Source of the DNA: a bacterium
GTDB lineage: Bacteria > Sysuimicrobiota > Sysuimicrobiia > Sysuimicrobiales > Humicultoraceae
NCBI GenBank assembly: GCA_041497675.1
Contig: JBGQGY010000119.1
Span: 1-11,083 of the forward strand
Length of the DNA stretch: 11,083 nt
Direction of reading: 5' to 3'
Every line of letters begins with the position of its first letter. The first letter of the stretch is position 1. Shown here piece by piece: positions 2,004 through 11,083 of the stretch. The notes below the pieces were generated by a model, which made no database searches, was not told where the DNA came from, and saw only the letters and a program-made list of their open reading frames with translations. The position numbers were made by a program, and so were the translations under genes.

Positions 2004-3560
2004 CTAGCGGCGGTCGAGCCAGACGTTCCAGTAGGAGGGACCGGGGACGCCCGTGAAGCCTTTGACTTCCTCGCGCAGCGCGTGCAGCCAGTACCAGTCG
2101 CCGATCTTAACCGTCGCCGCGTCCTCATAGAACTGCCGCTGCGCGCGCTTCCAGATCTCGAGGCGGACTTTCGGGTCAGTATGGCGCGTGAGCAGTTTCA
2201 AGTGCGCGTCCATCTCGCGGCTCTCGTACCAGCCGGGAAACGAGGGCAGCAGCACGAGCAGATTCGTCGGGTCGGGCACGAAGCTGAACCCGGTGGTGAA
2301 CACGTCGTAGAGGTCGGGTCGCGCGCGCCGCGTGCCGACGGTCGCCGTGTCGGATACCTGCAGATCGATCACGAAGCCCGCGCGTTCGAGTTGCGCCTTG
2401 GCAATACTCGTCGCGGTGAGGTGCGGCACGAACTCGCTCGACACCAGCCACCGAATCGGTTGCCCGCGATATCCCGCCTCCGCCAGCAGCTGCCGGGCCC
2501 GGTCAGGATTCTTCTGATTGTAGAACTCCTTGCCGGCGTCGTTCCAGAGCGGATGCTCCTTGGGCATCATCCCCGGGTCGACGCGCCAAAATTGGCGCGG
2601 GCCGAACGTGCCGCGCAGGATGGCTTCCATGTCGAGCGCGATCTGCACGGCCCGCCGCATCCGCAGATCGGTCATCACACCCTGGCGCTTGTTGAAGATG
2701 AATCCCTGCCAGGCCGGCACCGGGATCACGAACGGGATGACGCCCCGGAGACCCTGCAGCCGCGCAAACTCATCGTGGGGTACCGTGTCGGCGAACTGGT
2801 ACTCTCCTCGCGTGACCCCGGCCACACGCACCGCGGGGTCGGGCAGTGAGAGGAAGAAGATCGAGTCAATGTAGGCCTCACGCCGGCCCGCGAACCCGCT
2901 TGGGGCCTCGTCAACCGGTTTGTATTGATCGAACCGGTCGAGGCGGACGTGCCGGTCGGGCAGGTACTCGCCGAACTTGTACGGCCCGGTGCCGATGAAG
3001 CGGCGGATCTGACCGGTGCCGGCCTCGTCGACGACTTCCTTCGGATAGATGACGGCGCCCTGACCCGGGAAACCCAGGTTGAGGAGCGTCAGCGCGTTGG
3101 GGTCGCGCATGCGCAGTTCCACCGTGGAGCGATCTATCGCGGTCAGCGACTGCACGTCGCGGAACAACTCGCGGCCACGCGCCGCGATACGCCCCCACCG
3201 CGTCAGCGACGCGATGACGTCGTCGGCCACCAGCTCCTTGCCGTTGTGGAACTGCACGCCCTTGCGGAGATAGAACGTGTACAACAGCCGGTTGGGACTC
3301 ATCGTCCAGCGTTCGACCAACAGCGGCCGCGGTTCATACGCGGCGTTGAGCGCGAAGAGCCCCTCGTACATGTGGACGCCAATGTCGCGCGTGATGGTGA
3401 CCGACGTCCAGTGGAGGTCGAGGCTCGGCGGATCACCGGTGTGGGCGTGCCGGATCACCCCGCCGCGTTGTGGTTGGGCGGGAGCAGACAGCAATGGGGC
3501 GGGGGCGAAGGCCAGCGCCAGCACCCCGATGACTACGCCGATGTGCCAGAGACGCGGCAT
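2004..3560 (-). CDS. ABC transporter substrate-binding protein, family 5 (peptide/opine/nickel, DppA-like)
   Basis: Signal peptide, PQRGGVIRHAHTGDPPSLD, LRKGVQFHNG, DVIASLTRW, IGTGPYKF, LLAEAGY and C-terminal WNVWLD. The GAGGT RBS overlaps the vapC stop; ATG at 3560 gives better spacing than GTG at 3563. Confidence 0.92.
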   Translation of the reverse strand: MPRLWHIGVVIGVLALAFAPAPLLSAPAQPQRGGVIRHAHTGDPPSLDLHWTSVTITRDIGVHMYEGLFALNAAYEPRPLLVERWTMSPNRLLYTFYLRKGVQFHNGKELVADDVIASLTRWGRIAARGRELFRDVQSLTAIDRSTVELRMRDPNALTLLNLGFPGQGAVIYPKEVVDEAGTGQIRRFIGTGPYKFGEYLPDRHVRLDRFDQYKPVDEAPSGFAGRREAYIDSIFFLSLPDPAVRVAGVTRGEYQFADTVPHDEFARLQGLRGVIPFVIPVPAWQGFIFNKRQGVMTDLRMRRAVQIALDMEAILRGTFGPRQFWRVDPGMMPKEHPLWNDAGKEFYNQKNPDRARQLLAEAGYRGQPIRWLVSSEFVPHLTATSIAKAQLERAGFVIDLQVSDTATVGTRRARPDLYDVFTTGFSFVPDPTNLLVLLPSFPGWYESREMDAHLKLLTRHTDPKVRLEIWKRAQRQFYEDAATVKIGDWYWLHALREEVKGFTGVPGPSYWNVWLDRR

Positions 3561-3569
3561 CACGCTACC

Positions 3570-4049
3570 TCATTCGCTGGATTCTGCGAACCAACCTGTC
3601 ACCGCCCGCGCCGACCCGAGGCGTCGGAGCCCGGGGATGCTGTCGAACCCGGCATCGAAGCTGACGATCGCCTTGTATCCTACCTCATCGGCCGCAACCC
3701 GTAGAAGCGCATCGTGAAAGCTCACGCCGCCCGTGGTTTCTTCCATGACCGCCACGCACTGAGCGAACCACCGGGGCACGTGAGGATAGAGCCAGGTGAT
3801 CGCCGTCTCAGGGATCGTCTCAACCAACAGCTTGACGTGGGCGGCAAACGCCCCGCGGTCGTTGCGCTCACGACACCGGCGGGCGTAGACGGTGAGGACC
3901 TCGTTCACGACGCAGTCGGGCGTCAGGGTGAGGGCGCCGCGGTCTCGAAGCGCGCCGTACATGGCGCGGGCCTCACCGTGCAGCGCGTCACGCCGGTCGA
4001 ACAACGCCACCAGATAGCTGGCGTCGAGGCAAATCGGCTCAGCCGTCAT
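3570..4049 (-). CDS. vapC: PIN-domain ribonuclease, type II toxin (VapC family)
   Basis: Likely start is ATG at 4049 (MTAEPICLDASYLVALFDRRDALH, 159 aa). The PIN acidic residues are present in LDAS, VVNEV, SFHDALL and SFDAGFD. Overlaps the antitoxin stop by 11 nt. Confidence 0.88.
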   Translation of the reverse strand: MTAEPICLDASYLVALFDRRDALHGEARAMYGALRDRGALTLTPDCVVNEVLTVYARRCRERNDRGAFAAHVKLLVETIPETAITWLYPHVPRWFAQCVAVMEETTGGVSFHDALLRVAADEVGYKAIVSFDAGFDSIPGLRRLGSARAVTGWFAESSE

Positions 4050-4287
4050 CTCGTTCCGTGTCGGCCAGCGCGTCGCCGCCGAGGTCAAACGCGCCGACCA
4101 ACCCCTCGAGCCTACGTACGTCGACCGGAACGGCGACGGCCCGGGGCTGGGCGGCCGGCTCCAGCACAATCCTGCGGCCCTGGACCGCGATCCTGAGGAG
4201 GTCTCCCTCCTTGAGGGTGAGTTCGTCTCGGACGGACGCGGGCAGGGTGATCTGACCCTTGTGCTTCAGACGCACAAAAGCCTCCAT
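4039..4287 (-). CDS. AbrB/MazE/SpoVT-family antitoxin (VapB-like)
   Basis: 82 aa; swapped-hairpin motif KGQITLPASVRDELTLKEGDLL...GRRIVLEP; acidic C-terminal tail; AGGAG RBS 7 nt before the ATG; directly upstream of the PIN gene. Confidence 0.9.
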   Translation of the reverse strand: MEAFVRLKHKGQITLPASVRDELTLKEGDLLRIAVQGRRIVLEPAAQPRAVAVPVDVRRLEGLVGAFDLGGDALADTERDDG

Positions 4288-4377: not shown

Positions 4378-5664
4378 TCAGCTTCTCGCGGCGCCCACCG
4401 GCACGCCGACCGGTCGCCGATCCGCCACGATCTTCCCGTCCTTGATCACCAGCGGGATGCGCTTCAGATCCTGCAAAATCTTCACGTCCTCGAGCGGGTC
4501 GCCGTCGACACAGACCAGGTCCGCGAACTTCCCGCGCGCCACCACGCCGACGTCCTTGAAGTCGATCGCGTCCGCCGCGCCACCGGTGGCCGAGACGATC
4601 GCCTCCATCGGCGTCAGACCCGCCTCGACCAGCATCTCGAGCTCGTAGGCGCCCTGCCCGTGATAGACGTACGGCATCGCGGCATCGGTGCCGCAGATGA
4701 TCTTCACGCCGCGCTCGCGCGCGCGGCCCGCCGTCTTCCACGCGTTGGAAATCGCCTTCTCACGCCAGACCGGCAGGTTCGGGTCGCCCGGCGGCAAAGC
4801 CGCGTCGCCGTGCTCGCGGAATCGCCCGACGACCGAGAGGGTGGGACAAAGCACCGTGCCGCGTTTCGCCATCTCGTCGAGCTGTTCATCGGAGAGGTAG
4901 AACCCGTGCTCGACGCCGTCGATGCCCTCTTCAATTGCCCATGTCGCGCCCGGACCGCCGTAGCAGTGCGCGGTCACGCGGCGGCCGTGCCAGTGGGCCT
5001 CTTCGAAGATCGCGTGCATCGTCTCGCGCGTCATCTCCGGTGCGCAGTAGCCGAAGTAGCGGCGGACGTGCTCGGTGAGCGTCGCGTTGATTTTGATGAA
5101 GTCGACGTTGTTCCTCAAATTCAGCCGCACGGCCTTGCGCCCTTCCGTCGGATCGTCGGCCACCGCCGACGGTCCCGGCAGGCTCAGGTGCGGGGCGAGA
5201 TACTTCTCGCGGTCCATGTGCCCAGCGGTCGAGGTGATGCCGAGCCCGCAGGCCCAGATGCGCGGCCCAACCACGTCGCCCCGGTTGATCGCATCGCGTA
5301 GCGCCACGTCGGCGTAGTAGCGGCAGGCGGCATCACGCACGGTTGTCCAGCCGGCCTCGAGGTCGCGCGTCGCATTCTTGAAGCAGGCGAGCGTCGTCGC
5401 GGGGATGGACTGCGCGAGCTCGGCGACACCAAACGCGCCGTCGCGGGGACTGCCGCTCCCAACGAGGTGCACGTGACAGTCGATCAACCCAGGCAGCACG
5501 GTCTGGCGCGAGGCGTCGATGACATCGTAGCCTGCGGGGACCGCGGTCTCGCCCTCGGGCGCGACGACGTCGACCCGGTTCTTCTCGATCAGGATCACGA
5601 CGTTGCGGCGCGGCGGCTGACCGGTTCCGTCGATGAGCCGGCCGGCTCGAATGGCAAGCGGCAT
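4378..5664 (-). CDS. Metal-dependent amidohydrolase (Xaa-Pro dipeptidase/imidazolonepropionase-like subgroup)
   Basis: Start at ATG 5664 (MPLAIRAGRLIDGTG) with a GGGAGG RBS, 428 aa. Motifs: TVLPGLIDCHVH (HxH), GWTTVRD, DFIK (candidate carboxylated Lys), VTAH, VEHG, GTDA (catalytic Asp), and GKFADLVCVDGDPLED. Confidence 0.92.
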   Translation of the reverse strand: MPLAIRAGRLIDGTGQPPRRNVVILIEKNRVDVVAPEGETAVPAGYDVIDASRQTVLPGLIDCHVHLVGSGSPRDGAFGVAELAQSIPATTLACFKNATRDLEAGWTTVRDAACRYYADVALRDAINRGDVVGPRIWACGLGITSTAGHMDREKYLAPHLSLPGPSAVADDPTEGRKAVRLNLRNNVDFIKINATLTEHVRRYFGYCAPEMTRETMHAIFEEAHWHGRRVTAHCYGGPGATWAIEEGIDGVEHGFYLSDEQLDEMAKRGTVLCPTLSVVGRFREHGDAALPPGDPNLPVWREKAISNAWKTAGRARERGVKIICGTDAAMPYVYHGQGAYELEMLVEAGLTPMEAIVSATGGAADAIDFKDVGVVARGKFADLVCVDGDPLEDVKILQDLKRIPLVIKDGKIVADRRPVGVPVGAARS

Positions 5665-5733
5665 GGTGGCCCTCCCTATAGACTGGAATCGCGGGTGCAG
5701 AAGATTCAGTTCGCGCTTGTGATAGCGAGTCCT

Positions 5734-5777
5734 GTGGTCAGAGGAAAGTGGCCACCGTGTCAGAATGCCGGTATCAT
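5734..5777 (+). promoter_or_regulatory. Candidate promoter and operator for the + strand ABC operon
   Basis: TGGCCA (5749-5754), 17 nt, TATCAT (5772-5777). The imperfect inverted repeat GTGGTCA-N8-TGGCCAC (5734-5755) overlaps the -35. Confidence 0.35.
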
Positions 5778-5814
5778 CGCTCACCGATCGTGCCACACCC
5801 CGGAGGTTGAGCCC

Positions 5815-7428
5815 TTGGGACGCCATCGCGGGCACATCAGCCTGCTCGCGCTCGTGTTTGTGCTTGCGCTCTCGCTCGGCGTGTTCGGAGCGTCGTCATC
5901 GCCCCGCGACGCCGGCCGCTACGGCGGCGACCGTTACGGCGGCGTCCTACGCGTCGCTATCAACGCCGAGCCGCCCGGGTTCGATCTCCAGATCCACACC
6001 GCGCAGATCGCCTTCACCATCGGCCAGCACGTGTTTGAGACGCTGTTCACGCTGAACGCGCGCAAGCAGTTCGTGCCGTTCTTGCTGGATTCGTACACCG
6101 TCGACGCGGACAGCCGGACGTTCACCTTCAAGGTCCGCGCCGGGGTGCGGTTCCACACCGGCGCCGAGATGACGTCGGCCGACGTGCTGGCGTCGCTCCA
6201 GCGCTGGCAGCGCGTCAGCGGCCGCGGGCGCCAGCTCCTCGCGAACCTGACGGGCGCCACCGCGCCCGATGCGACGACCGTCACGCTCGTGTTCTCGCAG
6301 CCCAACGGCGCGTTGATCAGCGCGCTGGCGATCCCCACGCAGGGGATGGTCGTCCTGCCCAGGGAGATCATCGATCGCAACCGCGGCGCCGACGGGAGAG
6401 ACCGCGAGCTCAAAGGGGCCGATCTGATCGGCACCGGTCCGTACCGCCTCGCGGAGTGGCTGCCGGACCGCTACACGCGGCTCGTGCGGTTCCGCGAGTA
6501 CACGCACCGGAACGATCCCGCAAACGGGATGGCCGGGAACCGCTCCGCCTACGCGGACGAAATTCGATTCATCCCCGTGCCGGATAACCTCACCCGCCTG
6601 GCCGGATTGATCTCGGGTGAATACGATCTCGCCAACCCGCTGGTGCCCGACATGTACGACCGCGTGCAGCGGACGCCGGCCCTTGTCGGACAGGTCGTGG
6701 GGCCTGGCGGCGGCGTGGTCGCCGTGTTCAACAAACGGCGAGGCCCCTTCGTCGACGTCCGCATGCGCCAGGCCGCCTGGTACGCGACCGATCCGAAACA
6801 AGTGATGATGGCCGTCAGCGAGAACAACGTCTTCTATCGCCTGACGCCCGCGCTGGCCGGCACGGAATGGGGCGTGTGGAACTTCCCCAACGTGGGGAGC
6901 GACGTCTACGGTCACGGCCGTGATCCCGAGCGGGCGCAGGCCCTGATGCGCGAGGCCGGATATCGCGGCGAGCCGATCAGGTGGATCACGACGCGCGACT
7001 TCGCCTACATGGACCGCTCATCGCAGATCGCCGCCGAGCAGATGAAGCGCGCCGGGCTCAATGTCGAGCTCGTCGTGTCGGATTGGGCGACCGTGATTGC
7101 CGACCGCAACCGGCCCGAGCGCTACGAGATCTTCAGCACCGGCATCTCGTTCCTCGGCGACCCCACCGCGACCGCGGCGTTCACGCCGACCTGGCCGGGA
7201 TGGTATGAGTCATCCCGCAACACCTCCAACTATCAATCGCTCGTCCAGGAAACGAACGCGCAGCGCCGCCGTGAGCTCGCGCGCGAGCAGCAGCGGATCT
7301 TCTGGGACGAGATCCCCTACATGCAGTGGGGCGAGTTGCTTCAGTTCCGGGCGCACCGGCGGGCCGTGCAGAATGTGCCCACCGACAACCTGTACGTGCT
7401 CTGGAACGCCTGGCTGGACAAGCGGTAG
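5815..7428 (+). CDS. ABC transporter substrate-binding protein, family 5 (DppA-like)
   Basis: GGAGGT RBS (5802-5807) 7 nt before an in-frame TTG at 5815, giving the signal peptide MGRHRGHISLLALVFVLALSLG. Motifs YGGVLRVAINAEPPGFD, VRFHTG, IGTGPY, EAGY and WNAWLD; 537 aa. Confidence 0.9.
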   Translation: MGRHRGHISLLALVFVLALSLGVFGASSSPRDAGRYGGDRYGGVLRVAINAEPPGFDLQIHTAQIAFTIGQHVFETLFTLNARKQFVPFLLDSYTVDADSRTFTFKVRAGVRFHTGAEMTSADVLASLQRWQRVSGRGRQLLANLTGATAPDATTVTLVFSQPNGALISALAIPTQGMVVLPREIIDRNRGADGRDRELKGADLIGTGPYRLAEWLPDRYTRLVRFREYTHRNDPANGMAGNRSAYADEIRFIPVPDNLTRLAGLISGEYDLANPLVPDMYDRVQRTPALVGQVVGPGGGVVAVFNKRRGPFVDVRMRQAAWYATDPKQVMMAVSENNVFYRLTPALAGTEWGVWNFPNVGSDVYGHGRDPERAQALMREAGYRGEPIRWITTRDFAYMDRSSQIAAEQMKRAGLNVELVVSDWATVIADRNRPERYEIFSTGISFLGDPTATAAFTPTWPGWYESSRNTSNYQSLVQETNAQRRRELAREQQRIFWDEIPYMQWGELLQFRAHRRAVQNVPTDNLYVLWNAWLDKR

Positions 7429-7445
7429 CGGCGCGCGGGCGCGTC

Positions 7446-8369
7446 ATGGTCCGGTACGTCGTCGTCAGGCTCCTCGTAGCCGTCCCGGTCGTGCTGATCG
7501 TGGCGTCCCTGGTGTTCGTGCTCGGCCGGGTGATGCCCGGCGATCCCGTGGCCGTGATGCTCGGCGATCAGGGCGCGCCCGAGGACATCGCCCGGCTGCG
7601 TCAGACATTGGGGCTCGATGACCCGCTCCCGCTGCAGTATGTGCGGTGGCTCGGGCAGGCGTTGCTCCGGCTCGACCTCGGTGACAGCATCTATCTGAAA
7701 CGCCCGGTCGTGCAGGCGCTGGCCGAGCGCATCGCACCGACGTTCATGCTCACCGCGCTCGGCGCCGGTCTGGCGATCCTCGGGGGCGTCAGCCTGGGTG
7801 TGACATCGGCGCTCCATCGCAATACGTGGGTGGACCGCGTCGTAATGGTACTGGCCCTGCTTGGTCTCTCGATCCCCAGCTTCTGGCTCGGACTCGCGCT
7901 CATCCTGATCTTCGCGGTCTGGCTGCACGTGCTGCCGTCCAGCGGCTACGACGGCGCGCGCTACCTGCTGCTCCCCGCCGTGGCGATTGGGCTGTCCGGC
8001 ATGGGCATCATCGCGCGGATGGCGCGCTCGAGTCTGCTCGACGTCCTCCGCCAGTCGTACGTGCAGACGGCGCGGAGCAAGGGGTTGACGAATCGGACCG
8101 TGATCTGGCGTCACGCGATGCGCAACGCGTTGGTCCCGACGCTCACCGTCGTCGGGCTGATCGTGACGAGCCTGGCGGGCGGCGCGATCGTCGTCGAGAG
8201 CGTGTTCGCGATCCCCGGCGCGGGACGCCTCATCATCCAGTCGGTGGCGCGACGCGACTACCCGGTCATTCAGGGCGGCGTGATGTTCGTCGCGCTGCTT
8301 TACGTGCTGGCCAATCTCGTCGTCGACGTCCTCTACGCCTACATCGACCCGCGGGTTCGCTACTCGTAA
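7446..8369 (+). CDS. Peptide/nickel ABC transporter permease (DppB/OppB-like)
   Basis: ATG at 7446 (MVRYVVVRLL...MPGDP...LGLDDPLPLQY), multiple TM helices, EAA-type loop DVLRQSYVQTARSKGL, RRDYPVIQG, and C-terminal DVLYAYIDPRVR. Confidence 0.93.
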   Translation: MVRYVVVRLLVAVPVVLIVASLVFVLGRVMPGDPVAVMLGDQGAPEDIARLRQTLGLDDPLPLQYVRWLGQALLRLDLGDSIYLKRPVVQALAERIAPTFMLTALGAGLAILGGVSLGVTSALHRNTWVDRVVMVLALLGLSIPSFWLGLALILIFAVWLHVLPSSGYDGARYLLLPAVAIGLSGMGIIARMARSSLLDVLRQSYVQTARSKGLTNRTVIWRHAMRNALVPTLTVVGLIVTSLAGGAIVVESVFAIPGAGRLIIQSVARRDYPVIQGGVMFVALLYVLANLVVDVLYAYIDPRVRYS

Positions 8370-8373
8370 CCCG

Positions 8374-9204
8374 ATGGCGACGTGGCGCCGCCTCGCCGGC
8401 CGGCACTCCAACATCGCGCTCGGACTCGCGCTGGTCCTGCTGATCGCCGGTCTCTCCGCGGGCGCGCCGCTGCTCTCGCGGCGTGACCCCACCGCCGCCG
8501 ACGTACCGAACCAGCTGCACCGGCCCTCGCGCGCGTTCCCGTTGGGCACCGATCACCTAGGACGCGACCTCTTCGCCCGCGTCCTCTACGGCGGGAGGGT
8601 GACGCTGCTGATCGGTCTCGCCGTCGTGCTCCTCACGGCCGCGGGTGGCGCCGGGGTCGGTCTGGCGGCCGGGATGTCTCCCGCGCTGGATCGCTGGATG
8701 ATGCGCGTGATGGACGCGCTGCTCGCGCTGCCGGCGATCCTGTTGGCGATCGCCGCGATGACCATCCTCGGCCGATCGGTGCTCAACGTCGTCGTGGCCC
8801 TGGCGATCTCGTCGATGCCGCGCATGGCCCGGTTGGTGCGGGGGTCGGCGTTGGTCCTGCGCGAGGGCCCGATGGTCGAGGCCGCGCGCGCGATTGGGGC
8901 CGGGACGCGGCGGATTCTCATACGCCACATCCTGCCAAACGTCGTCTCTCCCATCGTCGTCCAGGGCACGTACACGTTTTCGACGGCCGTGCTGACAGAG
9001 GCATCGCTGTCGTTCCTCGGCGTCGGCCCGGCGCATGGGGTCCCGTCCTGGGGGAGCGTGCTGAGCGAAGGCCGCGATCTGATCGATCAGGCGCCGTGGA
9101 TGACCATCTTCCCCGGCATCGCCATCGTGCTAACGGTCCTGGGGATCAACCTGCTCGGCGACGGGCTCCGGGATGCTCTCGATCCGCAGTTGCGGGGTCT
9201 CTAG
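8374..9204 (+). CDS. Peptide/nickel ABC transporter permease (DppC/OppC-like)
   Basis: 276 aa; LGTDHLGRDLFARVLYGGR, EAA motif VEAARAIGA...RHILPN, EASLSFLG, PSWG, and NLLGDGLRDALDP. Confidence 0.94.
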   Translation: MATWRRLAGRHSNIALGLALVLLIAGLSAGAPLLSRRDPTAADVPNQLHRPSRAFPLGTDHLGRDLFARVLYGGRVTLLIGLAVVLLTAAGGAGVGLAAGMSPALDRWMMRVMDALLALPAILLAIAAMTILGRSVLNVVVALAISSMPRMARLVRGSALVLREGPMVEAARAIGAGTRRILIRHILPNVVSPIVVQGTYTFSTAVLTEASLSFLGVGPAHGVPSWGSVLSEGRDLIDQAPWMTIFPGIAIVLTVLGINLLGDGLRDALDPQLRGL

Positions 9205-9237
9205 AATCCGAGGTCTCGATATCCAAGGAGGAGTGAC

Positions 9238-9990
9238 GTGACACCAACGGAACGGTACGCGGCTGAAGTCACCGCACTGCTCGCGCGCATCGTGAAGGAA
9301 GAGTCGGAAAACATTCGCAAGGCGGCCGGCATGCTGGCCGACGTGATCGCGCGGGATCGGTTGATCTTCCCATTCGGCACGGGCGGGCACTCGCTCATGG
9401 GCTCCGAAGAGATGGCGCGGCGGGCCGGCGGGCTCGCATCGGTCTACCCGATCATCGACCCGGGGATCTCCGTCATGTTCGGACCGGTCCGCGCCAGCGC
9501 GCTCGAGCGCACGGTCGGCTACGCGCGGAGCGTGCTGAGCACGTATCCGATCACGTCCCAAGACGTCCTGATCATCATCAACGCGTACGGCATCAACGCG
9601 TGCTCGATCGACACGGCCATGTGGGCAAAAGAGCGCAAGGTCCCCACCATCGCGATTACATCGCCTTCGTTCAGCCGGGCCATGCCAAAGGATCTGGTGG
9701 CGCGACATCCCAGCGGACACAACCTGTTCGAGCTGGTCGATCTCGTCATCGACAACAAGATGCCACCCGGCGACGCCGTCTTGAAGTTCGAGGGTCTGAA
9801 GACCCCGGTCTCGCCGGTGACCACGATTCTCAACGCGTTCGTCATCGAGTCGCTGACCGGTGAAACGGTGAATCTGCTGTTGCAGCGCGGGATCACGCCG
9901 CCCGTGTGGACCAGTTCTAACGTCCCCGGCGGTGACGAAGCCAACAAGGAGCACATGGCGCGCTTCGCGCCGCGCATCCGCTGGCTGTGA
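9238..9990 (+). CDS. SIS (sugar isomerase)-domain protein, UPF0309/GmhA-like fold
   Basis: 250 aa; strong AAGGAGG RBS before GTG; FGTGGHS, EEMARRAGGL, LERTVGYA, RHPSGHNLFELVDLVIDN..PPGDA, and PPVWTSSNVPGGDE. Confidence 0.85.
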   Translation: MTPTERYAAEVTALLARIVKEESENIRKAAGMLADVIARDRLIFPFGTGGHSLMGSEEMARRAGGLASVYPIIDPGISVMFGPVRASALERTVGYARSVLSTYPITSQDVLIIINAYGINACSIDTAMWAKERKVPTIAITSPSFSRAMPKDLVARHPSGHNLFELVDLVIDNKMPPGDAVLKFEGLKTPVSPVTTILNAFVIESLTGETVNLLLQRGITPPVWTSSNVPGGDEANKEHMARFAPRIRWL

Positions 9991-11083
9991 GCCGCGGGCG
10001 GCGCTTCGGAGTGTGTGCGTACGTCGGCACCGACGTCGCGCTCGAGCCACAGCTGAAGTATCTGGACGCGGCGATCGCCCAGGGCTGCGCGCTGGTGATG
10101 ACGTCGCTGCATTTGCCCGAGATGGCCACGGCGCGCGCGCCCGCCGAGTGCCGTGCGATCGCGGCCCGCACGCGTCCGGCGGGCGTCACGTTCATCGCCG
10201 ACGTCTCACCGGTAACCTTTCGGCATCTGGGTGGATCGCCGGCGAACACGACGCCGCTGGCGGATGTGGGTCTCGACGGCATCCGCCCCGACTACGGATT
10301 CGATGCCGGTGATCTCGCCGCGATGGCCCGCGGGCCGGGTCCGGCCGTCGTGTTGAACGCGACCGACGTGACGGACGAGCGCCTGGAGGCCGTAGCAGCG
10401 GCCGGGCCACACGGACTCGCCGGCGCATGGGCCATCCACAACTTCTATCCAAGACCCGAGACGGGCATCGCGTTGGACGTCTGCGTCGAGCGCAGCATGC
10501 GGCTCGCGCGGCTGGGCGTGCGGGTCGGGGCGTTTGTGGCGTCGCAGCACGTGCGGCGGGGGCCGGTCCACGAAGGGATGCCGACGATTGAGGATTTCCG
10601 CCGGCTGCCGCCCGCGCGCGCGGCTGAGATGCTGTTTGCGACCGGTGCGATCGACGCGGTGTTGCTTGGGGATCCTTCATTAGATGACGCCGAGGTCAAG
10701 GCACTGGCCGGCGTCGCCGGGCGCGACGAGATCATGATTCGCGCGCGCCGTCACGGTGAGCCGTCGCGCGAGGAACTCGCCGTCATGGACGGACCGCTGA
10801 CGTGCTGGGCGGTCGCGCAGTATCTGCTGCGCACGGGGAACCCGGCGCTCCGGCCCGCCGCGGCTGCCGGGCCTCGCGGGACGATCGCGCCCCGCAACAC
10901 GGAAGCCCGCGCAGCGTACAGCATCACGATCGATAACGACCATTATCCCCGGTTCGCCGGCACGCTGCACGTGGTCAGGACCGACCTACCCGCGGACCCG
11001 CGCGTCAACGTCGTCGGCTCGGTCGACCCCGAGGATCGCATGCTGATCGACCTCCTGCGACCGAGCGATCGGTTTCGCTTCAA
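9987..11083 (+). CDS. MupG/DUF871-family TIM-barrel protein (6-phospho-N-acetylmuramidase-like), truncated by the window end
   Basis: Not in the ORF track because there is no stop in the window. GTG at 9987 overlaps the SIS gene TGA, and the frame is open for 365 codons. Manual translation gives FGVCAY, MTSLHLPE, IADVSP, IRPDYGF, VLNAT, HNFYPRPETGI, RGPVHEGMPTIE, LLGD, ITIDNDHYPRFAG, LPADPRVNVVG and RFRF, which match DUF871 motifs in order. Confidence 0.88.
   Translation, partial: MSRGRRFGVCAYVGTDVALEPQLKYLDAAIAQGCALVMTSLHLPEMATARAPAECRAIAARTRPAGVTFIADVSPVTFRHLGGSPANTTPLADVGLDGIRPDYGFDAGDLAAMARGPGPAVVLNATDVTDERLEAVAAAGPHGLAGAWAIHNFYPRPETGIALDVCVERSMRLARLGVRVGAFVASQHVRRGPVHEGMPTIEDFRRLPPARAAEMLFATGAIDAVLLGDPSLDDAEVKALAGVAGRDEIMIRARRHGEPSREELAVMDGPLTCWAVAQYLLRTGNPALRPAAAAGPRGTIAPRNTEARAAYSITIDNDHYPRFAGTLHVVRTDLPADPRVNVVGSVDPEDRMLIDLLRPSDRFRF

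Follow-up and report, generated by a model that had tools for sequence, protein, structure and literature searches.

A phosphotransferase-independent operon joins a generic ABC importer to a divergent GH170 hydrolase and a NagS-like SIS protein

The window analysed here, a stretch of 11,083 bp that makes up the entire contig C119 (JBGQGY010000119.1) of a bacterial genome, carries at its right end five genes on the + strand that run from position 5815 to the contig end, where the readable sequence of this locus stops at 11083. The first three encode a family-5 binding protein and two Dpp-type permeases of an ATP-binding cassette (ABC) importer, the last two a SIS_2 protein and a hydrolase of the MupG type (DUF871/GH170), and the Pfam matches of all five lie well above the curated cut-offs. 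It is firmly established that the operon is real, that it is independent of the phosphotransferase system (PTS), and that in it an importer generic in this organism is combined with two divergent amino-sugar enzymes that are conserved as a pair. In what follows G000 is the source genome (3.97 Mb in 272 contigs, 98.6% complete, 3.6% contaminated) and C119 its window contig, G001, G002, G003, G006 and G026 are relatives, and L numbers denote fetched loci. The genes of the operon are as follows.

5815..7428, + strand: family-5 (Dpp/Opp/Nik-type) substrate-binding protein, 537 amino acids (Pfam SBP_bac_5, E 1.7e-59)
7446..8369, + strand: DppB/NikB-type ABC permease, 307 amino acids (Pfam BPD_transp_1 and BPD_transp_1_N, E 5.2e-43)
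8374..9204, + strand: DppC/NikC-type ABC permease, 276 amino acids (Pfam BPD_transp_1, E 6.8e-27)
9238..9990, + strand: NagS-like SIS_2 protein (UPF0309/PRK02947), 250 amino acids, of the N-A-Y-G-I-N subfamily (Pfam SIS_2, E 1.4e-37)
9987..11083 (last codon ends at 11081), + strand: divergent GH170 hydrolase, cut by the contig end (MupG_N, E 3.1e-48; MupG_C, E 1.9e-17)

Reading the junctions base by base bears out the first-pass annotation, which had described these five genes at these coordinates with gaps of 17, 4 and 33 nt and a GTGA overlap. The binding-protein gene begins with TTG at 5815, behind a GGAGG at 5802-5806, and ends in TAG at 7426-7428, 17 nt ahead of the ATG at 7446 of the first permease gene. 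The TAA of the latter (8367-8369) is followed after 4 nt by the ATG at 8374 of the second permease gene, whose TAG at 9202-9204 is separated from the GTG at 9238 of the SIS gene by 33 nt containing AAGGAGG. The GTG of the hydrolase gene at 9987 overlaps the TGA of the SIS gene at 9988-9990, and the two genes are translationally coupled. No terminator-like site is present on the + strand between the operon genes. Since close homologues are 368-369 amino acids long, the hydrolase gene is short of about three codons and its stop.

The hydrolase scores 164.8 bits with MupG_N and 63.9 bits with MupG_C against cut-offs of 24 and 24.4, so the DUF871 identity first proposed for it is upheld by hidden Markov models. 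Among solved relatives phmmer finds 2P0O (E 7.6e-39) and 1X7F (E 9.4e-32), and the same two structures take Foldseek ranks 1 and 2 for its AlphaFold2 model (predicted local distance difference test 91.3; template modelling scores up to 0.81-0.85). According to excerpts of the literature, MupG of Staphylococcus aureus, the founding GH170/DUF871 member, cleaves the disaccharide of 6-phosphorylated N-acetylmuramic acid and N-acetylglucosamine (MurNAc-6P-GlcNAc) made by the PTS MurP, with catalytic residues that the excerpt gives as not established and calls 'enigmatic' (PMC6262408); ChbE of L. paracasei is required for growth on PTS-imported diacetylchitobiose (PMC12791066), and CelX is a member of a cellobiose PTS operon (PMC6271610). 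Among 160 GH170 loci from public collections a PTS EIIC gene within 5 kb is found in 140, MurQ in 118 and a NagS-like gene in 14. The window hydrolase is like S. aureus MupG in its two Pfam domains, its 2P0O/1X7F fold, its core invariants and its predicted cytoplasmic place behind an importer. Unlike MupG, it belongs to a rare clade, is changed at 12 positions, and has neither a MurP PTS nor MurQ or MurR beside it; of the usual GH170 partners, PTS EIIBC and MurQ, G000 has a MurQ, but on contig C87.

The relatives closest to the window hydrolase come from a metagenome collection, namely L082 (91% identical), L083 (81%) and L084-L086 (57-58%), the genome collection holding none closer than 42%. 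Neither PTS EIIC nor MurQ occurs in any of these five loci within the DNA available, and the next-nearest GH170 sequences (36-42% identity, from Symbiobacterium, Thermaerobacter and metagenome contigs) stand in the classic order PTS EIIBC, hydrolase, MurQ. In a midpoint-rooted tree of 158 of 161 sequences, length or ambiguity having excluded three, the window and L082-L086 form one clade with a support of 1.0 and a stem of 1.22 substitutions per site, next to a sister group that lacks support. About 20 family-wide invariants are kept (E45, D72, R100, D102, N124, H151, N152, Y154, R156, E158, R191, E202, R205, D229, R282, R308, D316, N317 and R322), as are seven of the eight arginines conserved across GH170, and because the core invariants are kept the hydrolase looks active. 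Twelve positions with a conservation of 85% or more among the 152 other sequences are all changed in the window and L082-L086, while each of the 152 deviates at four of them or fewer. The changes are S10C, F38M, S126T/A, T127D and H204F/L and seven more in the C-terminal domain between 273 and 328 (N273C, D275A/S, R287A, G311Y, Y323F, E326T and Q328H); R287, Y323, Q328, H204, D275 and E326, lost in this clade, are 97-100% conserved elsewhere. As a rule the catalytic face of a TIM barrel is formed by the C-terminal ends of its strands, and in the secondary structure of the model sites 10, 38, 126 and 127 lie at or just after the C-terminal ends of strands 1, 2 and 5.

When 1.84 billion representative proteins were searched exhaustively with HMMER, 836 family members came back, of which 2 are more than 50% identical to the window hydrolase. 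The clusters (formed at 90% identity) that share 55% identity or more with it number ten, and all of them carry the signature, at 10-12 of its 12 positions. By homology and predicted fold, the hydrolase is thus a true GH170 member of a rare, long-branch clade. The suggestion in the first-pass annotation that this MupG clade may act on a different substrate fits the 12 changed near-invariant positions. The same search found three longer proteins, P0261 (697 amino acids), P0334 (677) and P0360 (877), with a GH170-like stretch at one end, and fused GH170 forms therefore exist.

The SIS protein scores 252 bits with NCBIfam NF002805/PRK02947 (cut-off 135), and among solved structures it finds NagS (9EOL, SCO4393; E 1.8e-36) and 3CVJ (E 4.6e-33). 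NagS of Streptomyces coelicolor was described in 2025 as a GlcNAc-6P dehydratase whose essential residues, according to that study, are H53, R64, E94 and D179, with S91 and N228 as important ones and Ser54, Ser119 and Ser121 holding the sugar phosphate (PMC12680351). The same study reports that homologues 26-36% identical, from outside Streptomycetaceae, did not dehydrate GlcNAc-6P, and it defines orthologues by an identity of at least 58.7%, a place in Streptomycetaceae and divergence from dmdR1 (PMC12680351). The window protein is like NagS in its SIS_2 fold over the whole length and in keeping the counterparts of all six catalytic or important residues (H53, R64, S91, E94, D179 and N228), together with S54, in the HMMER alignment. 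Unlike NagS, it is some 34% identical by a hand count on that alignment, comes from outside Streptomycetaceae, and has ABC and GH170 genes rather than dmdR1 as neighbours, which sets it apart from the orthologues. The main departure lies in the phosphate loop, where S119 becomes N115, S121 becomes Y117 and the Arg of relatives becomes I119, giving N-A-Y-G-I in place of S-x-S-G-R. The isomerase-like step at first assigned to this protein finds no support, as by homology it is a distant NagS homologue and not a MurQ-type or ordinary isomerase. An identification as MurQ was rejected, because only SIS_2 and NF002805 match and not TIGR00274, GKRP_SIS_N or GKRP-like_C; the idea that it simply replaces MurQ was likewise rejected, because Planococcus-type loci carry MurQ and a NagS-like gene together and G000 has a true MurQ.

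The loop distinguishes whole groups of proteins. In a comparison of 22 NagS-like proteins, all four of the window clade read N-A-Y-G-I-N, whereas the 18 from 13 PTS-containing GH170 loci all have Ser at 119, with Ser (11) or Gly (7) at the second position. Of the 120 closest database homologues (46-98% identity), 111 are exactly NAYGIN, nine are close variants and none has S-x-S-G-R, and their source names include Armatimonadota, Chloroflexota, Firmicutes and Trueperaceae. The NAYGIN loop is therefore the mark of a large subfamily and not a private oddity. A search of 401 Bacillota genomes gave matches at E 1e-50 or better in nine of them, at 11 places, of which 10 were taken as nine loci (L188-L196; the weakest, L185, was left out) and 57 selected open reading frames were scanned. 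All ten SIS proteins carry the variant loop and are encoded near transporters of SSF, TRAP or ABC type, and the nine loci yielded no PTS part; further neighbours are NagA, NagB, NagC-like ROK regulators, a ceramidase-like protein of 445 amino acids and genes of the N-acylglucosamine 2-epimerase family. The loop type of the SIS protein tracks the mode of transport across all loci examined, with the qualification that the serine-type loci were all reached by way of GH170, a family mostly linked to PTS genes itself.

The importer ahead of this pair consists of the binding protein, which has a signal-peptide-like N-terminus, and two BPD_transp_1 permeases; unlike complete family-5 importers, the operon has no ATPase genes, the expected two with an oligo_HPY tail being absent from both the window and L083. 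No PTS_EIIC matches the Pfam model in G000, and tblastn of this genome with seeds from fetched loci (HPr, EIIA, EIIB and EIIC, the last of three kinds) found none, which agrees with the earlier view of the locus as PTS-independent. With the window proteins as queries, tblastn finds permease genes of DppB type (about 94) and DppC type (about 91) in G000, together with 67 or more family-5 binding proteins, yet the oligo_HPY tail occurs only 11 times, as five pairs inside complete operons and one fragment. Some 85-90 cassettes without ATPases of their own must therefore share the five DppD/F pairs, and a cassette lacking ATPases is the rule in this genome, whose relatives likewise have many ABC paralogues. 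The closest paralogous cassette in G000 is 47-58% identical and is followed by an amidohydrolase gene. None of the NCBIfam equivalogs recognises the binding protein at its cut-off (the best, GsiB, reaches 79 bits of 594), and the permeases come nearest to Opp2B (328 bits) and Opp4C (255 bits), each below a cut-off of 350. The best solved relatives of the binding protein are 8VDX (ligand unknown), AgaA (6HLX), 5U4O and YliB, with AccA also among them, and not DppA or OppA. It thus belongs to the same transporter family as the opine binders AgaA and AccA, and it is no nearer to DppA/OppA than to opine and glutathione binders. Other family-5 proteins take non-peptide or murein cargo: some of Vibrio and Thermotoga bind chitobiose or cellobiose, and MppA binds murein tripeptide. 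The solved relatives of the window protein bind varied ligands, and sequence alone assigns no ligand to it.

Around the operon the window contains the following features.

5749..5777, + strand: promoter-like site, TGGCCA - 17 nt - TATCAT, a consensus match only, within the 150-bp divergent intergenic region
4378..5664, - strand: amidohydrolase (Xaa-Pro-dipeptidase-like), 428 amino acids, divergently transcribed (Pfam Amidohydro_1)
4039-4287: MazE-type antitoxin
3570-4037: PIN toxin
2004-3563, - strand: orphan family-5 binding protein, without permeases of its own
15-908, - strand: DpaA-like gene

L083 is collinear with the window through PIN/MazE, the divergent amidohydrolase, the binding protein, both permeases, the SIS protein and the hydrolase; the order is kept at 85% nucleotide identity, and the amidohydrolase, in the equal position, is 97% identical. 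Beyond the hydrolase L083 continues with an esterase of the polyhydroxyalkanoate-depolymerase type and then genes on the opposite strand, and L082 with a 600-nt gap and a convergent ARPP-1 gene. In these two close relatives with visible downstream DNA no kinase, murQ, nagA, dppD/F or PTS gene follows the hydrolase, so that the downstream kinase anticipated in the first-pass annotation finds no support there, and neither does the MurP-like PTS that would have spoken against it. When the DNA 3' of the hydrolase was compared with the other G000 contigs, that of L082 found no match and that of L083 only a distant NMT1-type gene on C92. L084 (hydrolase 58%, SIS protein 72% identical) has the SIS gene and the hydrolase gene with no ABC genes beside them; next comes an EamA-type secondary transporter, again a non-phosphorylating route. 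In L085 the hydrolase gene faces a convergent NamZ gene, and in L086 the SIS gene is reduced to a remnant.

The contig itself belongs to the host lineage, since the DNA of its left end (the DpaA-like gene and an NMT1-type binding protein) and of the amidohydrolase is 83-87% identical to contig C78 of the same-genus genome G001, where the amidohydrolase is the conserved backbone gene. That contig stops 216 bp beyond the amidohydrolase. In G001, G002, G003, G006 and G026 a search for an orthologue of 5741-11083 turned up paralogous ABC genes only, at 65% identity or below. The hydrolase was found in G000 only, 1 of 41 genomes in an order-level sample and 1 of the 94 searched in the phylum, many of them incomplete, so that absence here means not found in those searched; this rarity fits an acquisition of the SIS-hydrolase pair from outside. 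The amidohydrolase, which scores 289 bits with NF051886 against a cut-off of 500, shares one intergenic region with the operon and is a candidate member of the system; it has no match at E 1e-8 or better among the nine Bacillota loci as a partner of NAYGIN proteins. The promoter-like site was the only one found by the scan, where shuffled sequence leads one to expect 0.6. A search of 5600-5900 gave no inverted repeat, and no Rfam family reaches threshold over the window.

The segment 1945-4397, which holds the orphan binding protein and PIN/MazE, is missing from the otherwise collinear C78 of G001 and is thus an insertion or deletion difference between close relatives, with PIN/MazE present in L083. 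The orphan binding protein is 36% identical over its full length to that of the operon (E 8e-115) and may be a second receptor for the operon permeases. The DpaA-like gene, with 216 bits, falls short of the 261-bit cut-off of the dipicolinate synthase subunit A model, and a 99% identical partial copy on the small contig C226 (1-498) suggests strain heterogeneity or an assembly duplicate.

G000 has further amino-sugar genes elsewhere. At 6243-14580 of C87 (L164) lies a cluster of a GNAT protein, a family-5 binding protein, two permeases, a serine hydrolase of PBP4B/AmpH type, a BadF-family kinase, MurQ (337 bits against a cut-off of 302) and AnmK, the last also above its NCBIfam cut-off. The clear PTS-independent MurNAc route with a family-5 ABC importer is this cluster and not the window operon; we take it to resemble the murQ-murP-yfeW set of Escherichia coli, with the PTS replaced by an ABC importer and a kinase. 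C10 encodes a NagA above the TIGR00221 cut-off, adjoining a GH3 NagZ, C83 a NamZ, C19 the single ROK protein of the genome, and C50 an EamA homologue that is 51% identical to the transporter of L084. PTS-independent MurNAc routes are reportedly also formed by MurT-MurK-MurQ of Tannerella forsythia and by MurK of Clostridium acetobutylicum. The window is like these in having a non-PTS importer followed by cytoplasmic processing, and C87 is such a set in G000; unlike the window, they take a monosaccharide, with a kinase in cis and MurQ.

The only other recurrent architecture that combines GH170 with a NagS-like SIS protein is an operon of Firmicutes, in which GntR, a PIG-L deacetylase, PTS EIIB/C, GH170 and EIIA are followed by one or two NagS-like SIS_2 genes (L120 and L022 by Pfam; L109, L144, L147, L155 and L106 by tblastn). 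Unlike the window operon it is fed by a PTS, its SIS proteins keep the loop serine and its GH170 proteins keep the canonical residues. It sometimes continues with HPr and a NagA-like gene and is apparently uncharacterised.

With a probability of roughly 45%, and thus tentatively, we read the window operon as a system for the PTS-independent uptake and breakdown of an unphosphorylated amino-sugar glycoside, in which import and cleavage would be followed by NagS/MurQ-type processing and only later by kinases. The binding protein and two permeases would import the cargo unphosphorylated, with energy from one of the five DppD/F-type ATPase pairs that other loci encode. The most plausible cargo would be a beta-linked disaccharide of the N-acetylhexosamine or MurNAc type, derived from the turnover of cell walls or chitin, MurNAc-GlcNAc being the obvious candidate. 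The divergent GH170 hydrolase would then cleave the glycosidic bond in the cytoplasm without need of a 6-phosphate, and the NagS-like SIS enzyme would act on the released N-acetyl sugar by NagS/MurQ-type chemistry at C2-C3, an elimination or a hydration. Only afterwards would the product be phosphorylated and enter central metabolism, through the BadF-type kinase, MurQ, AnmK, NagA and NagZ of other contigs. The cargo, the order of steps and the phosphate independence of both enzymes are inferred from sequence; the reading is favoured because both enzymes have changed together relative to their PTS-linked relatives, and because the change in the SIS protein strikes a known phosphate loop. A bolder claim, possible but doubtful, is that the pair represents the first phosphate-independent branches of two sugar-6-phosphate enzyme families, the GH170 clade cleaving an unphosphorylated MurNAc- or GlcNAc-type glycoside and the NAYGIN enzyme performing a 2,3-elimination or hydration of MurQ/NagS type on an N-acetyl sugar without phosphate, ahead of any kinase.

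Several observations weigh against this proposal. G000 already has NamZ and a GH3 NagZ, which cover unphosphorylated MurNAc/GlcNAc disaccharides. The importer was originally called peptide-type, and its family is confirmed; the label says little about cargo, because the cassette is a generic uptake module present in some 90 copies. The linkage of family-5 ABC genes to DUF871, on which the first-pass annotation built, holds in L083 and fails beside L084-L086, which in part fits the lack of conserved linkage that the annotation itself had named as a refutation. The SIS-hydrolase pair is a conserved unit whose linkage to ABC genes is shallow and confined to the window and L083. In two further loci, L102 and L123, CUT1-type permeases and a binding protein are followed by Amidohydro_2 and then a GH170 with canonical residues, with no kinase visible (L123 has in addition a Rieske protein between these genes, and AraC- and PadR-type regulators upstream). 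As these are distinct from the window clade, ABC linkage of GH170 arose more than once; and as their hydrolases retain D275, R287, Y323, E326 and Q328, the changed residues of the window clade are not readable simply as a lost phosphate site. The loss of the loop serines is no proof of lost phosphate binding either, because the NAYGIN subfamily has gained an invariant Arg at window position 85 that could form an anion site with N115 and Y117. Finally, Bacillota NAYGIN loci contain the 6-phosphate enzymes NagA and NagB without an obvious kinase, and a kinase in trans is evidently normal for the subfamily.

The strongest rival is canonical chemistry with a kinase in trans, in which the BadF-type kinase of C87 or the ROK protein of C19 would first phosphorylate C6 of the disaccharide or sugar that the ABC importer brings in unphosphorylated, and GH170 and the SIS protein would then act on 6-phosphates. 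We regard this as a serious possibility, if on the unlikely side. G000 does encode a BadF-family kinase, MurQ, AnmK and NagA, but that kinase belongs to a complete cluster of its own with its own ABC importer, and we know of no kinase for a MurNAc-GlcNAc-type disaccharide, a point on which no search was made. The subfamily-specific Arg85 could bind the phosphate, and the retention of seven of eight GH170 arginines fits a phosphorylated substrate, as do the Bacillota NAYGIN genes beside NagA/NagB without their own kinase; against this, two of the three NagS phosphate-binding serines and the loop Arg are replaced, and the hydrolase has lost the six residues that are 97-100% conserved elsewhere. 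Precedent is on the side of the rival, since all studied GH170 members, MupG (PMC6262408), ChbE (PMC12791066) and CelX (PMC6271610), use PTS-delivered phospho-sugars in the excerpts that describe them.

A second rival, which we rate as improbable, holds that importer and pair were brought together recently, so that the importer would bring in peptides or some other solute, say for the amidohydrolase, and the sugar of the pair would arrive by another route, such as the EamA homologue of C50 or the internal turnover of the cell wall. The shallow ABC linkage, the EamA gene of L084 and its 51% identical homologue on C50 all suit such an origin, and so does the presence of some 90 cassettes beside many kinds of enzyme genes in G000. 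The occurrence of GH170 in 1 of 94 phylum genomes suggests an acquired, inserted pair next to an amidohydrolase that is a backbone gene in G001. However, the 33-nt gap between the second permease and the SIS gene contains a ribosome-binding site and no terminator, the gene order is maintained at 85% nucleotide identity in L083, and the binding protein is no closer to DppA/OppA than to opine and glutathione binders. Least likely of the four readings, and very improbable, is that the divergent GH170 protein has ceased to be a glycosidase and serves with its partner in sensing or another class of reaction, or has no catalytic role, for although 12 near-invariant positions are changed on a long stem in a family whose catalytic residues are given as not established in the excerpt of PMC6262408, about 20 invariant polar residues kept among sequences 55-92% identical point to purifying selection on an active-site-like set, and the model confidently predicts the family fold.

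To our knowledge, neither a GH170 protein behind an ABC importer nor the NAYGIN subfamily has been described, our literature search having had little cover of subscription journals. A search for 'UPF0309' found no paper, and among the GH170 matches listed the work on ChbE (PMC12791066) is the sole functional study of a family member, none dealing with structure or mechanism. The abstract of a study of mycobacterial MurNAc recycling names no enzyme of the GH170 or NagS families (PMC13041923).

GH170 has one biochemically characterised member and an unknown mechanism, and the NagS family was described only in 2025, its relatives outside Streptomycetaceae being left without a substrate. Some proteins of the family at large, about as distant from NagS as the window SIS protein, were inactive on GlcNAc-6P in the NagS study (PMC12680351). 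If the unphosphorylated-glycoside reading is true, the phosphate-independent pair would be a salvage route working before any kinase step, and it would assign a role to a large NAYGIN subfamily that is associated with SSF, TRAP and ABC transporters in several phyla. The operon, together with the split between loop types and transporter types, could define new specificities in both enzyme families, and it could show how bacteria without a PTS salvage the sugars of cell walls or chitin.

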